Below are positions 116 through 53,954 of a stretch of 64,000 bases of DNA, piece by piece; positions within the stretch are counted from its first letter, which is position 1, and each line of letters begins with the position of its first letter. Location of the stretch: positions 21,710 to 85,709 of the forward strand of contig JALSKD010000016.1 of the NCBI GenBank assembly GCA_026989015.1, read 5' to 3'. Under the pieces are notes generated by a model. The model was not told the origin of the DNA and made no database searches. It saw only the letters and a program-made list of their open reading frames with translations. The translations under genes were made by a program, and so were the position numbers. Origin of the DNA: Gammaproteobacteria bacterium (GTDB lineage Bacteria > Pseudomonadota > Gammaproteobacteria > GCA-001735895).

Positions 116-210
116 TTCAGTCAATCCGCCGTTCGTTTCCTCGAGGCGAACGGCGGCGGGGGGCAGCGTCTGGAGGGGCGTTGTTCGTCGTCAGCAGTTG
201 ACCCTTCCGA

Positions 211-475
211 GGGAAGTTCTGACCCATTCGGGTATACCTCTGGCTCACAGGCGGGTTCGCTATCAAGGCGTGGCTGTGAAAGCAGGCTGGTTGCCTGGTG
301 AACAGCCGCAACGCAGAGAGCGGATTCGCCTGTGAGCCCCGCAGGGCGCGCCCTGAAGCACGCATCCACGGTGTTGCGCTTCTTGCCAAGGGCCGGGCCA
401 TTGGCGGCGAAGCGCGCCTTGTGGCTGCATGCTTCAGAGTGCGCAGAGGCATGCCCGAATGGGTCAGAGCTTCCC
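211..475 (+). ncRNA. Candidate structured non-coding RNA. The 5' and 3' ends form a ~32-bp closing stem, and there are nested internal hairpins. Alternatives: 6S-like RNA, a regulatory leader, or a MITE-like element.
   Basis: 211-242 (GGGAAGTTCTGACCCATTCGGGTATACCTCTG) is complementary to 444-475, with 2 G-U wobbles and 1 mismatch. There are internal inverted repeats: CTCACAGGCG (~244-253) with CGCCTGTGAG (~326-335), and the palindrome CAGGGCGCGCCCTG. A strong terminator follows immediately. The ORFs here (298..495, 332..649) cross the terminator and look non-coding. Confidence 0.3.
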
Positions 476-494
476 AGGTGTGTGTGCGGCCTTA

Positions 495-537
495 GGGGCG
501 CCTCTCGTCCACCCGGATGTCGGGCGCCCCTCTTTTT
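495..537 (+). terminator. Rho-independent terminator
   Basis: GGGGCGCC ... GGCGCCCC inverted repeat (8-bp GC stem) followed by TCTTTTT. Confidence 0.6.
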
Positions 538-4298: not shown

Positions 4299-6509
4299 AT
4301 GAGTGAACCCATCCGCCTCTCCATCGCCGGCATGGCCTGTGCCGGCTGCGTCTCCGCCGTCGAGAACGCGCTGAAGGAAGTGCCCGGTGTCGAGGAAGCC
4401 ACGGTCAACCTGGGCGAGCGCACCGCCACGGTGACCGGAACCGCGGATGCCGATGCGTTGATCGCTGCAGTGAAAAAGGCCGGCTACGATGCCGCCGAAT
4501 TGCGCGGCCTGGAAGACGAGCAGGAAAAGGAAAACCTGGAGCTTCAGGAATACCGCAAGCTGTGGTGGCGCGCCCTCGTCGCAGGCGGCATCGGTGCCGC
4601 CATGTTCATCGGCGGCGCGCTGGGCCTGTTCCCGGAGATCGAGGAATCCCCGGGCTTCTGGATGTTCCTGAGTCTGGTGACGCTGGGCGTGCTCACCCTG
4701 GTCGGCGGACATTTTTTCAGGGGAGCACTGGCTTCGCTGCGCGCCGGGCGCGGCAACATGGATACTCTGGTGGCGCTGGGCACCGGCTCCGCCTGGCTCT
4801 ACTCCACCGTGGTGGTGCTGTTTCCCGACAGCCTGCCCAGCCTGGCGCGGCACGCCTATTTCGATGCCGCGGTCATCATCGTCGGCCTGGTATCGCTCGG
4901 CTCCGCGCTGGAAACCAAGGCACGGGGCAAGACCTCCGAAGCCATCAAGCACCTGATCGGCCTGCAACCGGCCACCGCCCGCGTCATCCGCAACGGCGAG
5001 GAGATCGACCTGCCGGTGGAGGAAATCGGCCTCGAGGAAACCATTCGCATCCGTCCCGGCGAACGCATCCCGGTGGACGGCGAAATCTTCGAGGGCGAAT
5101 CCCATGTGGACGAGTCCATGCTTACCGGCGAACCCATGCCGGTCTCCAAGAAAGTGGGTGATGCGGTCTACAGCGGCACCCTGAACACCTCCGGCAGCTT
5201 TCTGATGAAGGCCACCAAGATCGGCAAGGACACCGCGCTCGCCCACATCATCGAGCTGGTGCGCCAGGCCCAGTCCAGCAAGCCGCAAATCGGCCGCCTG
5301 GTGGACAAGGTGGCCGCCATCTTCGTGCCGGTGGTGGTGACCATTGCCGTCATCAGCTTCATCGTCTGGTACCTCTGGGGTCCCGAACCCAGCCTTGCCT
5401 ACGCCATGGTCTCGGCCATGACCGTGCTGGTCATCGCCTGCCCCTGCGCGCTCGGCCTGGCCACCCCCATCTCGATCATGGTCGGCGTCGGCCGTGCCGC
5501 CGAGATGGGTGTACTGATCCGCAATGGCGAAGCCCTGCAAAGCGCCAGCCAGCTCGGCACCATCGTGGTGGACAAGACCGGCACCGTTACCGAAGGCCGC
5601 CCACGGCTGACCACGCTGCTGCCGCAGCCCGGCTTCGACGAGAGCGAAGCCCTGCAGCGCGCCGCCGCGCTGGAAACCGGCTCCGAACACCCGTTGGCCG
5701 CCTCCATACTCGAAGCGGCGCGTGAGCGGGGTATCGAGGCCACGGCGGTCGAAGGGTTCCGGGCCGTCTCCGGCTTCGGCGTCGAGGGCGAACGCGACGG
5801 CCACCGCCTGATCCTCGGCAACGCACGGTTCATGAAGCAGCAGGCCGTTGATCTGGGTGACAGCGAAGCCCGCGCCGAGCAGCTGGCCGCATCCGGCGAA
5901 ACCCCCATCTACCTCGCCGAGGATGGCCGGCTGGTCGCCCTGCTGGGCATCTCCGATCCGCCACGGGAAGACTCGAAACAGGCCATCGAACGCCTGCACC
6001 GCCTGGGACTCACCGTCATCATGCTCACCGGCGACAACGCCCGCACCGCGCGCGCCATCGCCGACCGCGTCGGCATCGACGAAGTCATCGCCGAAGTATT
6101 GCCCGAAGACAAGACCGGCAAGATCACCGAACTGCAGGCCCGCGGCCGCAAGGTGGCGATGGTCGGCGACGGCATCAACGACGCCCCGGCGCTGGCCCAG
6201 GCCAATGTCGGCATCGCCGTCGGCAGCGGCGCCGATGTGGCCATCGAATCCGCCGACATCGCGCTGATGCGCAACTCCCTCAACGGCGTAGCCGACGCCA
6301 TCGCCCTGTCGCGTGCCACCCTGCGCAACATCAAGCAGAACCTGTTCGGCGCCTTCATCTACAATGTGCTCGGCATCCCCGTCGCCGCCGGCGTGCTCTA
6401 CCCCTTCTACGGCATCCTGCTCAGCCCCATCATCGCCGCCGCCGCCATGAGCATGAGCTCGGTCACCGTCGTCACCAACGCCCTGCGCCTGCGCAAGCAG
6501 CGTCTGTGA
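4299..6509 (+). CDS. copA: Copper-translocating P1B-type ATPase
   Basis: N-terminal HMA with GMACAGC; the CPC transmembrane motif; DKTGT phosphorylation site; GDGINDAP. Confidence 0.9.
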
Positions 6510-46668: not shown

Positions 46669-46745
46669 CGGGGTGTAGCGCAGCCTGGTAGCGCAACTGC
46701 TTTGGGAGCAGTGGGTCGGGGGTTCGAATCCCTCCACCCCGACCA
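46669..46745 (+). tRNA. tRNA-Pro (anticodon TGG)
   Basis: CGGGGTGTAGCGCAGCCTGGTAGCGC...; anticodon loop TTTGGGA; T-arm GGTTCGAATCC. Confidence 0.85.
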
Positions 46746-46862
46746 GTTATCAATGGGTGCGAAACCCGCTAGAATCATGGTTCGGTCCGCGGGTAAGCGT
46801 GTGCACTGTTCCGGGGGATTTTGCGAGGAGGGATGCGAACCCGGCATCGGTTGGGTTATTCT

Positions 46863-46939
46863 GCGCCCGTAGCTCATCTGGATAGAGCATCGGCCTTCTA
46901 AGCCGAGGGTAGCAGGTTCGAATCCTGCCGGGCGTGCCA
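46863..46939 (+). tRNA. tRNA-Arg (anticodon TCT)
   Basis: GCGCCCGTAGCTCATCTGGATAGAGC...; anticodon loop CTTCTAA; 3' end GCCA. Confidence 0.85.
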
Positions 46940-46966
46940 AGCAGTACAGCAGTTTTTTACAATATG

Positions 46967-47043
46967 GTGGGCGTAGCTCAGTTGGTAGAGCACAAGATTG
47001 TGGCTCTTGTGGTCGTGGGTTCGATTCCCATCGTCCACCCCAT
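46967..47043 (+). tRNA. tRNA-His (anticodon GTG) with extra 5' G(-1)
   Basis: GGTGGGCGTAGCTCAGTTGGTAGAGC...; anticodon loop TTGTGGC; ends ...CCACCCCA. Confidence 0.85.
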
Positions 47044-47210
47044 ATTCAGCTCAGGCCCGGCGTCCGGTACGCCGGGCCGATGGATCACCGGCCGGACCGT
47101 TGGTGCCGATTCCGACGTATCAATGCATGGCCAACGGAGTTGTCCATAGATCGGAGCAGTCCCGGGCGAAACGCCAGTAGTGCCGCGATCGGTCCGCACC
47201 GGCGCAGCTT

Positions 47211-47297
<87 letters not shown>

Positions 47298-53796: not shown

Positions 53797-53872
53797 GGGT
53801 GCTTAGCTCAGCTGGGAGAGCATCGCCCTTACAAGGCGAGGGTCGCAGGTTCGATCCCTGCAGCACCCACCA
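53797..53872 (+). tRNA. tRNA-Val (anticodon TAC)
   Basis: GGGTGCTTAGCTCAGCTGGGAGAGC...; anticodon loop CTTACAA; ends CACCCACCA. Confidence 0.85.
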
Positions 53873-53877
53873 AAACT

Positions 53878-53954
53878 GGAGTGGTAGTTCAGTTGGTTAG
53901 AATACCGGCCTGTCACGCCGGGGGTCGCGGGTTCGAGTCCCGTCCACTCCGCCA
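53878..53954 (+). tRNA. tRNA-Asp (anticodon GTC)
   Basis: GGAGTGGTAGTTCAGTTGGTTAGAATACCGGCCTGTCACGCCGG...; ends CTCCGCCA. Confidence 0.85.

Follow-up and report, generated by a model that had tools for sequence, protein, structure and literature searches.

The copper-resistance locus and its 3'UTR

The window analysed here (the whole stretch of gammaproteobacterial DNA, 64,000 nt in length) has near its start the end of a copper-resistance cluster, in which multicopper oxidase and CopB genes are followed by a gene for a secreted, Met/Gln-rich protein of 154 aa and then, beyond a non-coding interval, by SHOCT, DedA, cytochrome c and copA genes. The original prediction had likened the coiled-coil end of the upstream gene to zapA, which does not agree with its product; in Pfam neither the 154-aa protein nor a neighbouring 110-aa protein has a match. 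Two things lie in the interval, a conserved block of ~150 nt that belongs to the host 3'UTR and a 265-nt element that interrupts it (Table 1).

Table 1. Features between the 154-aa gene and the SHOCT-DedA-cytochrome-copA genes, in window coordinates
Feature	Positions	Strand	Basis or remark
Host block, 5' part, 3'UTR of the upstream 154-aa gene	122-210	+	alignment of empty-site orthologues, consensus fold
Host hairpin H1	126-159	+	
Host hairpin H2	~160-186	+	
H3, 5' strand	187-196	+	
H3 loop with insertion site	197-210	+	
Inserted element, Y-shaped palindromic repeat, 265 nt	211-475	+	fold z; presence/absence between strains; model R1
Closing stem, 5' half (terminal inverted repeat), outermost motif GGGAAGYTCTG	211-241	+	pairs with 445-475
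Arm A, 97-nt hairpin module	242-338	+	conserved internal-loop motifs ATCAAGGCG (262-270) and GCAACGCAGAG (308-318)
Junction mini-hairpin CC-GCA-GG, between arms A and B	339-345	+	both pairs invariant
Direct repeat CGCAG flanking arm B	340-344 and 442-446	+	
Arm B, 99-nt hairpin module	346-444	+	GTTGCGC (373-379), CGCCTTGTGG (415-424)
Closing stem, 3' half (terminal inverted repeat)	445-475	+	terminus TCAGAGCTTCCC
Host block, 3' part	476-537	+	kept in all loci without the element
H3, 3' strand	479-490	+	
Intrinsic terminator, hairpin 494-531 and T-run to 537	494-537	+	predicted folds

The host block is found once per locus by our model R2, and is missing in L068, where the 154-aa gene is also missing. 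Within it the segments GGAGGG, CCCUCC and CGCCCCUC are mutually complementary, and H1, H2 and the terminator are predicted still to fold around the inserted element. A GC-rich terminator had been placed at 495-537, and a hairpin followed by TCTTTTT is indeed present there in both predicted folds; a simple terminator scan left it unflagged, the predicted stem being broken by an internal loop. Since this terminator is conserved in every locus without the element (including L048, L058/59, L060/61, L062 and L069) and the block accompanies the upstream gene, the terminator is host-derived. It is a feature of the upstream copper-resistance transcript, to which it should be assigned in annotation, and not part of the element as had been supposed. 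The block as a whole, which the element interrupts here, is itself a candidate for a new RNA linked to copper resistance, perhaps a conserved 3'UTR RNA of such loci that is so far undescribed.

That the 265-nt element is an insertion is seen at this locus itself. In L048 the flanks are 98.9% identical to those of the window and exactly the element is missing, such that the site reads GTTGACCCTCC|AAGTGTGTGTGCGG, and the empty site CCCTCC|AAGTGTG is common to L048 and four more distant orthologous copper loci (L058/59, L060/61, L062 and L069), in which the neighbouring 110-aa protein is 44-57% identical. Because the empty sequence is conserved in these four lineages, the empty state is, as judged from sequence comparison, the ancestral one, and we could rule out on the same ground that it arose by secondary deletion. 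In all, the element is missing in 5 of the 7 distinct operon versions that reach the insertion site. Moreover, a 61-nt derivative with the same termini sits in the same H3 loop in L065 and L066, whose close relative L062 is empty, and two different family members are therefore found within the same few nucleotides of this loop in two lineages. To explain such double occupancy, the family must either prefer this target or have survived only here, at the one place that tolerates it. The locus combines insertion polymorphism of the kind expected of a MITE (L048 empty versus window filled, L062 empty versus L065/L066 filled) with a feature known from intervening sequences (IVS), namely insertion into the apical loop of a helix (H3, 187-196/479-490) that occurs sporadically in two clades.

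The same alleles bear on the earlier proposal that the element is a riboswitch-like leader or attenuator of the SHOCT-DedA-cytochrome c-copA genes, acting through the terminator. Its position upstream of those genes, the strong terminator that follows it and the mutually complementary segments of the flanking host block would fit such a role; however, the 98.9%-identical strain and the four other lineages have this operon without the element, both terminator and host block follow the 154-aa gene and are absent together with it in L068, and no riboswitch family in Rfam was matched. We consider a leader function very unlikely, and the downstream genes would not depend on the element as a regulator.

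Sequence and predicted fold of the element

The element is the longest and best inverted repeat of the entire 64-kb window, and its anatomy is largely as first described. Of the 32 positions at which the ends (211-242 and 444-475) face each other, 29 are complementary; the mismatches are 217/469 (U.G), 233/453 (U.G) and 236/450 (A.C), two of the three being G-U compatible. We also confirmed the internal hairpins (arms 242-264/316-338 and 346-369/421-444) and a palindrome at 342-355. The predicted RNA fold of 205-540 is a Y composed of the closing stem and two long arms, and its dG of -221.8 kcal/mol compares with a shuffle mean of -146.8 (z = -12.4, with 0 of 100 shuffles as good), in agreement with the claim of a highly structured region of 265 nt. 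The opposite strand gives an equal-grade z (-12.5), yet is 25 kcal/mol less stable, and for the element alone we count 12 G.U pairs on the plus strand and 3 on the minus strand. Arm B is close to the reverse complement of arm A, which makes the element dyad-symmetric and allows either strand to fold into the Y. Consistent with this, the covariance model R1 scores the window copy at 277.5 bits on the plus and 128.9 bits on the minus strand, and, the arms being one module in two opposite orientations, it matches every copy on both strands. Compared by eye, ATCAAGGCG TGG in the element does not fit the IHF consensus WATCAANNNNTTR.

The element contains no transposase gene, and the ORFs predicted across it are short and differ between copies in where they start and end, giving no sign of coding capacity. 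We ruled out a real small protein, because the ORFs do not agree in position, start or end and the pattern of substitution tracks the stems. A retron ncRNA, which would also have a closing stem and hairpins, was ruled out as well, no reverse transcriptase gene lying near any copy.

Rfam 15, searched with the whole window at gathering thresholds and with positions 100-700, the empty-site locus and L070 at E <= 10, returned only tRNAs and chance microRNA-type matches and no family for the element; the 6S and riboswitch families named by the original prediction were not among them. A 6S-like RNA that binds RNA polymerase, which only the size class and the long closing stem recall, is in our view extremely improbable. 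The 6S model gave no match even with permissive filters, and the supposed likeness of the termini to those of 6S did not emerge. The fold is built on a three-way junction and lacks the rod shape and large central bubble of 6S, orthologous loci do not have the element, and the upstream gene is not zapA.

Sequence collections were similarly sparse in matches. Those of plasmids and phages gave none (blastn, and tblastn with three translated queries), a genome collection of species representatives, evidently without the window's genome, gave two unrelated matches of the terminal-repeat 20-mer inside coding sequences, and in viral contigs the 15-mer matches were chance, single-arm ones and the core-motif pattern returned zero. 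Three of the nine loci returned by a metagenome scan were real (L051, L055 and L056). Of the minus-strand translated frames used as queries one found nothing and the other revealed the family through spurious ORFs. No prior description was found in the literature by keyword and sequence-motif searches, the latter swamped by a common cDNA primer sequence, and to judge from Rfam 15 and this literature the family appears to be undescribed.

Relatives and conservation of the fold

Relatives of the element are present at unrelated loci and in other Gammaproteobacteria. In L051 and L056 a 164-nt derivative that consists of the closing stem and arm A lies upstream of a PHO4 phosphate-transporter gene, with a DUF308 gene on its other side; these second-locus copies lack arm B, with the break exactly between the CGCAG repeats, and have the outer motif GGGAAGYTCTG in common with the 61-nt mini copy, L070 and L075. 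Model R1 identified more full-length copies with a different terminal repeat at L056:2642-2923 and L055:9655-9985, such that the related contigs L055 (11.5 kb, orthologous to the window) and L056 (7.6 kb) have two copies each. Full-length elements are also carried by L070, L071, L073 and L075, and spurious ORFs over other copies come from MAGs named Ca. Thiodiazotropha, Thiotrichaceae and Ectothiorhodospiraceae, a Lysobacteraceae MAG being the weakest listed match (E 4e-4). Decayed and truncated copies occur in the family as well. The original prediction had proposed a search for extra copies as the mark of a MITE, and this gave a weakly positive answer: copies exist, but they are few and diverged, copy number looks low, and the window has one copy only by BLAST, pattern search and R1.

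Termini of the family include GGGnAnnTCTG... and TTAACCCGGCAAGTATC..., and three unrelated terminal-repeat types are found on one homologous core. Terminal inverted repeats of ~26-31 bp are present in every full-length relative except L073, in which the left arm is degraded. L070, L071, L055b and L056b have TA on both sides and L075 has TTA; the flanks of the window copy are CGA|...|AGG, and neither a target-site duplication nor TA is seen in the window, second-locus or mini copies. Being palindromic, TA may merely extend the inverted repeat. As with the window copy, a stop codon precedes L056b and a terminator-like hairpin follows it. Copies also occur away from structured RNAs, some in promoter regions and some between insertion sequences, and they share no conserved neighbour gene, promoter or terminator.

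Full-length members are 260-267 nt long and 49-70% identical, with 91% of structure cells paired. Compensatory changes are seen in 60 of the 104 pairs among six aligned members, including changes on both sides in 20/30 pairs of helix 1 (the closing stem, the middle of which covaries between members) and in 26/36 pairs of helices 2-4 (arm A), and the whole fold is conserved by such compensatory change. The two C-G pairs of the junction (columns 129/135 and 130/134) are invariant in 6/6 members, and arm B has G-U wobbles in 4-5 of the 6 at columns 160/215 and 161/214 and in all 6 at 164/211. In a comparison of the window copy, L070 and L075, invariant columns make up 72% of unpaired versus 39% of paired positions. 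Members differ freely in the middle of their terminal repeats and yet conserve the internal loops and the whole fold. This is the reverse of the classical DDE-type MITE pattern, and it suggests that a folded single strand is recognised or that the RNA has a function. On sequence grounds we regard these repeats as a well-supported new structured-repeat family in sulfur-oxidising Gammaproteobacteria.

The original prediction had read the G-U compatibility of the ends as a sign of RNA, and we find that this holds for the copies at the copper locus and not for the family. Between the window copy (W) and its L046/L055 variant (V) there are two double compensatory changes (245/335 U-A versus C-G, and 351/439 C-G versus U-A), and of the other changes five keep a pair only on the plus strand (G-U versus Watson-Crick) and one only on the minus strand. 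In W, V and the mini copy the plus strand is the more stable by 17.8, 15.1 and 11.8 kcal/mol, respectively. Family-wide, however, there is no consistent energy preference for a strand, the other strand folding better in L071 and L055b, and we rejected a strand bias as proof of RNA since the difference is inconsistent across members.

These data allow an alternative in which the element is a functional structured RNA module, acting in cis or in trans, perhaps binding a protein or processed by RNase III, and comparable to the loop-expanding IVS of 23S rRNA. RNA selection would then maintain the family, and its sporadic distribution would stem from horizontal exchange and not transposition. The extent of compensatory change at such low identity would fit this, as would the constant full-length size, the invariance of some unpaired motifs, the three wobble positions of arm B, the G-U bias of the transcribed strand at the copper locus, and the placement of the window copy in the apical loop of a conserved helix, with H1, H2 and the terminator folding around it. 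Nevertheless we think it unlikely, in that strand preference is not a property of the family, the inverted-module symmetry detected by R1 on both strands is what is expected of a DNA element, copies have no conserved neighbour gene, promoter or terminator, and some of them are decayed or truncated.

A probable mobile element and its closest known systems

Taken together, our comparisons suggest that 211-475 is probably one copy of a non-autonomous, MITE-like mobile DNA element that is co-transcribed as a long RNA hairpin, and it should be annotated as a mobile repeat rather than as an sRNA or a riboswitch. The suggestion of a MITE-like element with 32-bp terminal inverted repeats survives in outline, in view of the filled and empty alleles, the copies at unrelated loci, the deletion derivatives and the TA-flanked relatives; the element is also under ~600 bp, without a transposase gene, and has terminal inverted repeats that match at 29/32 positions. 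Whole-fold conservation is not usual among MITEs, and an element recognised by its structure is conceivable. Terminal inverted repeats of ~31 bp enclose two ~98-nt hairpin modules in opposite orientations, and this unit has inserted into the apical loop of H3, within a conserved 3'UTR of ~150 nt and just upstream of the transcript's own terminator. The host 3'UTR is that of the Met-rich, periplasmic 154-aa protein at the end of the multicopper-oxidase/copB cluster. Movement would have occurred in trans through an enzyme encoded elsewhere, and the TA flanks of several relatives would suggest a transposase of the IS630/Tc1-mariner type. Similar to MITEs of that group (e.g. Nezha of cyanobacteria), the family has TA flanks (in several relatives), terminal repeats of 20-30 bp, a size of <400 bp and no ORF. 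It differs from them in that no IS630-family parent element was found, TA is missing at the window copy, and what subfamilies conserve is the internal core and not the terminal repeat. Scans of genomes, metagenomes and viral contigs for exact words, and searches of plasmids and phages, turned up no relative that has both a transposase gene and matching ends.

A second route to mobility would be as folded ssDNA, moved by a structure-specific enzyme such as an HUH/Y1 transposase (IS200/IS605, REPINs/RAYT) or a tyrosine recombinase (integron attC), and not as a duplex that a DDE transposase recognises through its terminal repeats. In line with this, structure and not terminal sequence is conserved between subfamilies (three terminal-repeat types on one core), the ~98-nt hairpin of each arm has asymmetric internal loops that are conserved, the pair of inverted modules is reminiscent of the two inverted REPs in a REPIN, the three copies of the window subfamily in which both junctions could be compared have no target duplication, and L071 has three Y1_Tnp genes within 20 kb. 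However, these genes encode 144 aa each and look like ordinary IS200 copies, no Y1 or integrase gene lies near any copy other than that of L071 (Y1_Tnp was not called beside the L046, L070, L073 and L075 copies, whose loci have gene calls), known REPINs and attC sites are far smaller than the element, and the TA flanks of four or five copies fit a DDE enzyme of the IS630 type better. We thus hold this route to be quite improbable.

REPINs, which are paired inverted REPs moved by RAYT Y1 transposases, and BIMEs resemble the element in that a palindromic unit, present in two inverted copies, gives a larger hairpin whose structure is conserved, and also in the site between stop codon and terminator, which is typical for them. 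In contrast, the units of the element are ~98 nt in length and are enclosed by an extra terminal repeat of 31 bp. REP units are ~20-40 nt, are present in hundreds of copies and occur with a cognate RAYT gene (PMC2817692). Near the copies of our element no RAYT gene was seen.

The combination of variable termini and a conserved fold is unlike the prediction for a transposase that recognises a duplex, and the mobilising enzyme could consequently reveal a structure-specific mechanism. More speculatively, and with a low probability in our estimate, the family could be a new kind of structure-dependent selfish element, in which selection acts on the folded single strand of ~265 nt, whether RNA or ssDNA. 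If so, a dedicated protein would recognise the fold, the element would prefer the loops of structured transcripts and 3'UTRs, and it would have to be seen as a mobile equivalent of the intervening sequences of rRNA, not as an insertion sequence in decay. The IVS of 23S rRNA, in helices 25 and 45, are extended stem-loops in the apical loop of a conserved helix, sporadic among strains, variable in size, and with a long closing stem suited to RNase III. The element is alike in being a sporadic stem-loop in the apical loop of a conserved RNA helix, but its host is the 3'UTR of an mRNA and not an rRNA, and its family also lies outside structured RNAs.

With respect to the consequences for the transcript, a close parallel to the MITE-like element that we favour is with the Correia elements, which are 100-155 bp in size, form one hairpin, are present in hundreds of copies and are restricted to Neisseria. 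Both are small and non-coding, with inverted repeats (~26-30 bp in Correia) and TA flanks (in some members of our family), and both are present or absent between strains, lie beside genes and are co-transcribed as a long hairpin RNA, as we infer for the element. Differences are that the window element is 265 nt long, with a three-way junction of two inverted modules, is apparently low-copy, probably has no sequence similarity to Correia, and belongs to a family whose fold covaries across distant taxa. In Neisseria the Correia (CREE/NEMIS) hairpin RNA is bound or cut by RNase III and alters the expression of neighbouring genes (PMC2649163, PMC10969869, PMC2229807). Read-through from the upstream genes would similarly produce an mRNA tail with a branched hairpin of 265 nt and a double-stranded stem of 32 bp, in principle long enough for cleavage by RNase III. 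By analogy with Correia, the transcript is probably altered in its processing or stability by this stem, which could for instance be a substrate of RNase III. The filled and empty alleles of one copper locus offer a natural experiment on what becomes of an mRNA when its 3'UTR contains a hairpin of 265 nt.

An insertion in a conserved block, probably a 3'UTR

The two ends of the element, 211-242 and 444-475, match as complements in 29 of 32 positions, the mismatches being U.G, U.G and A.C, so that two of the three are indeed G-U compatible, and both of the inner hairpins (arms A and B, table) have basal arms of 23-24 nt with 51 nt separating them. The predicted fold of the 205-540 RNA consists of a Y and, 3' of it, a second hairpin and then UCUUUUU, at -221.8 kcal/mol against -146.8 +/- 6.1 for shuffled sequences (z = -12.4); the complementary strand has an equal z and a fold weaker by 25 kcal/mol. 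Within the window, whose G+C is 63%, the element ranks first among inverted repeats. The structure is real and exceeds chance by a wide margin, which confirms the original prediction of a structured RNA candidate with complementary ends and inner hairpins.

What surrounds the element proved to be a conserved block of its own (host block, table), running from just past the upstream stop codon to the T-run. Comparison contigs were fetched through the identical SHOCT protein (L046 and L048), and orthologous operons through homologues (44-57% identical) of the neighbouring 110-aa protein. L048 shares 98.9% flank identity over 827 nt and is without exactly the element (...GTTGACCCTCC|AAGTGTGTGTGCGGCC...), and in L058/59, L060/61, L062 and L069 the intergenic region is short, with the common sequence CCCTCCAAGTGTGTGTGCGGCCTTAGGGGCGCC...GGGCGCCCCTCTTTTT. 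As the site is empty in all of these, the empty state is ancestral; the element is an insertion, and the terminator is older than it. L046 has the element, differing from the window copy by 13 substitutions over 265 nt, versus about 8 over some 1030 nt of flanking sequence, and L055, from a metagenome scan, is an orthologue of the window locus with the same element sequence as L046. Per site, substitutions between 211-475 and L046:3777-4041 are about six times those of the flanks, and several L046 variants agree with the copy at the phosphate-transporter locus; this could point to copies undergoing gene conversion or to hairpin-associated mutagenesis.

The host block is nearly invariant across empty loci despite diverged neighbouring proteins (about 44-57% identical), and its consensus fold has four helices (three hairpins and the terminator), with covariation in two of the hairpins. 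A model of the block gave one match per locus, always directly 3' of the 154-aa gene's homologue, and none in L068, which is without that gene. It is therefore best read as the 3'UTR and terminator of the 154-aa transcript rather than as a leader of the downstream SHOCT-DedA-cytochrome-copA genes. The terminator, earlier assigned to the structured element, is conserved in empty loci and belongs to this block, which has no Rfam match and may represent a conserved RNA of the 3'UTR or a 3'UTR-derived sRNA. The 154-aa protein has a signal peptide, is Met/Gln-rich and has no Pfam match, and its gene follows multicopper oxidase and CopB genes. The 110-aa protein encoded after SHOCT (882-1214) likewise has no Pfam match, and among 5.8 billion proteins only nine were related to it at E <= 1e-5; those that were fetched all sit in the same SHOCT-...-cytochrome c-DsbD-copA arrangement.

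The insertion site (CCCUCC^AAG) lies in the apical loop of H3, and the fold predicted for the filled site retains H1, H2 and the terminator alongside the Y, with H3 weakened relative to the empty-site fold. A 61-nt insertion (mini copy) in the same loop of L065/L066 has termini common to the element and a different stem interior, and L062, a close relative, is empty there; presence and absence therefore occur in two clades at the same few nucleotides. Because the H3 loop is the sole host-block stretch seen varying in length otherwise (the L060 expansion), survivorship in a length-variable loop may suffice to account for the coincidence, for which a target preference for the loop is a possible alternative. 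The expansion in question, of about 17 nt (AAGTTGACCTTTTGGTTGACGA, L060/L061:~5600-5625), is a partial duplication of GTTGAC and shows the loop to be tolerant of changes in length. Directly after the terminator, L065 (~2400-2475) has a second small palindromic insertion of about 70 nt (ACCCGCATATCTCACC...GGTGAGATATGCGGGT), missing in the near-identical L066 and in L062, and so another mobile hairpin element in that intergenic region.

Features of the element, its host block and related copies
Feature	Location	Structure, context or flanks
Arm A	242-338	Long hairpin inside terminal arms; paired arms 242-264/316-338
Arm B	346-444	Long hairpin inside terminal arms; paired arms 346-369/421-444
Host block (~150 nt)	window 122-210 + 476-537; L058:3700-3847; L060:5529-5692; L062:5501-5651; L069:2519-2661	
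H1	126-159	Several compensatory changes
H2	~160-186	Compensatory changes; loop UGGAGGG
H3	187-196/479-490	GUCGUCAGCA/UGUGUGUGCGGC
Terminator	494-537	Fourth helix of host block
Mini copy (61 nt)	L065/L066, H3 loop	GGGAAGTTCTGG...GATCAGAGCTTCCC; flanks CCT|...|CAA
164-nt version	L051 and L056	Between DUF308 gene and PHO4 phosphate-transporter gene
Extra copy	L056:2642-2923	Found with R1; different terminal repeat TTAACCCGGCAAGTATCTA...
Extra copy	L055:9655-9985	Found with R1; terminal repeat TTAACCCGGCAAGTATCTA...; ~50-nt internal insertion
Family member		Upstream of LPP20 lipoprotein gene
Family member	within L071:1-20303	Between two ISAs1 copies, IS-rich region
Family member	L073:10286-10500 (-)	~150 nt downstream of tRNA gene; left terminal repeat degraded
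Family member		Between CDGSH-protein gene and PIN-domain gene
Window copy		Flanks CGA|...|AGG
Phosphate-transporter locus copy		Flanks CAT|...|ATG
L070, L071, and second copies L055b, L056b		Flanks TA|...|TA
L075 copy		Flanks TTA|...|TTA

A family with a conserved, symmetric fold

Rfam 15 at gathering thresholds returned six tRNAs and no other match in the whole window, and at E <= 10 nothing over 100-700 rose above chance, with no 6S RNA and no credible riboswitch. Both of these earlier readings fail their defining tests, and the family is absent from Rfam 15 and from the literature we searched. The tRNA genes lie in + strand clusters at 46669-47294 (four) and 53797-53951 (two).

The further copies sought for a MITE-like element are not within the 64-kb window and do occur on other contigs: scanning metagenomes with a terminal-repeat 20-mer returned nine loci, of which three (L051, L055 and L056) were real. 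The 164-nt version consists of the closing stem, with four mismatches, and arm A without arm B, and its break falls exactly between the CGCAG repeats that stand on either side of the window's arm B (340-344, 442-446); as distant taxa have the two-arm form, it is a deletion derivative. For the wider family we compared minus-strand translations of the element with protein libraries, seeking spurious ORFs. One frame had no match, and the other gave 23 representatives at E <= 1e-3 and, as a profile, 32 proteins, with Ca. Thiodiazotropha, Thiotrichaceae, Ectothiorhodospiraceae and, weakest, Lysobacteraceae as named sources. The DNA behind four of these (L070, L071/72, L073/74 and L075) holds 260-267-nt elements of the same Y fold, with no more than 49-70% identity to the window copy, and the genomic contexts of the members are unrelated (table). 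L071:1-20303 also encodes three 144-aa Y1_Tnp proteins, an IS66 unit, ISAs1-type transposases and a PemK toxin. Ten IMG/VR contigs (L009, L017, L021, L028, L031, L035, L037, L041, L042 and L044) match the 15-mer TCTGACCCATTCGGG, beyond which they have an identical 19-nt BLAST match and no other similarity to the element; our guess is a common coding motif.

An alignment of six sequences gave a consensus structure of 104 pairs, in which standard pairs fill 91% of cells versus 35-43% with partners slid by 1-3 columns, and compensatory changes are present, 60 of the 104 pairs having changed on both sides (11-24 when slid). None of 500 shuffles reached the observed values, and we conclude that long-term constraint acts on the fold. 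In arm A, among the window copy, L070 and L075, 72% of unpaired columns are conserved versus 39% of paired ones. Moreover, the covariance model of the element (R1) scores high on both strands of every copy, because arm B is close to arm A in reverse complement (ATCAAGGCG...GCAACGC in arm A corresponding to GCGTTGC...CGCCTTG in arm B). From end to end the element thus runs terminal repeat, module, inverted module, terminal repeat, and it is dyad-symmetric DNA in which both strands adopt similar folds. Folding energy has no strand preference across the family, except at the copper locus, where the + (transcribed) strand is the more stable one, by 17.8 kcal/mol in the window copy, 15.1 in the L046/L055 variant and 11.8 in the mini copy. 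Window copy and variant differ by two double compensatory changes, and by G-U/Watson-Crick switches of which five keep pairing only on + and one only on -. This pattern and the strand bias fit selection on RNA or a transcription-linked C-to-T bias at this locus, and fall short of proving that the family functions as RNA.

Possible means of mobilisation and likely effect on the transcript

The TA flanks suggest an enzyme of the IS630/Tc1-mariner type, or the palindromic TA could merely extend the inverted repeat; no search found a parent insertion sequence. One homologous core carries three terminal-repeat types, the reverse of the pattern expected of an element for which the duplex ends alone count, and this brings single-strand, structure-specific mobilisation into play as a rival. 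The MITE-like reading is supported by small size, inverted repeats, the lack of coding capacity and insertion polymorphism, and weakened by the missing parent; the evidence of target duplication is mixed, with TA or TTA flanks at some copies and differing flanks in the window, and so is that of copy number, with one copy in the 64-kb window and two on each of the contigs L055 and L056. That we are dealing instead with a new type of element recognised by its structure, or of RNA module with a function, we consider improbable, if well short of negligible.

The element sits between the stop codon of the 154-aa gene and that gene's terminator, L056b is placed similarly, with the DUF308 stop codon on one side and a terminator-like hairpin on the other, and no promoter-like site was found in 1-1300; transcription by read-through from the upstream genes is therefore most likely. 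The mRNA tail would then gain a branched hairpin containing a 32-bp duplex. RNase III of Neisseria binds or cleaves co-transcribed Correia elements at their inverted repeats, and these elements change how neighbouring genes are expressed (PMC2649163, PMC10969869); by analogy, similar RNase III binding or cleavage and altered expression of neighbours may occur at the copper locus.
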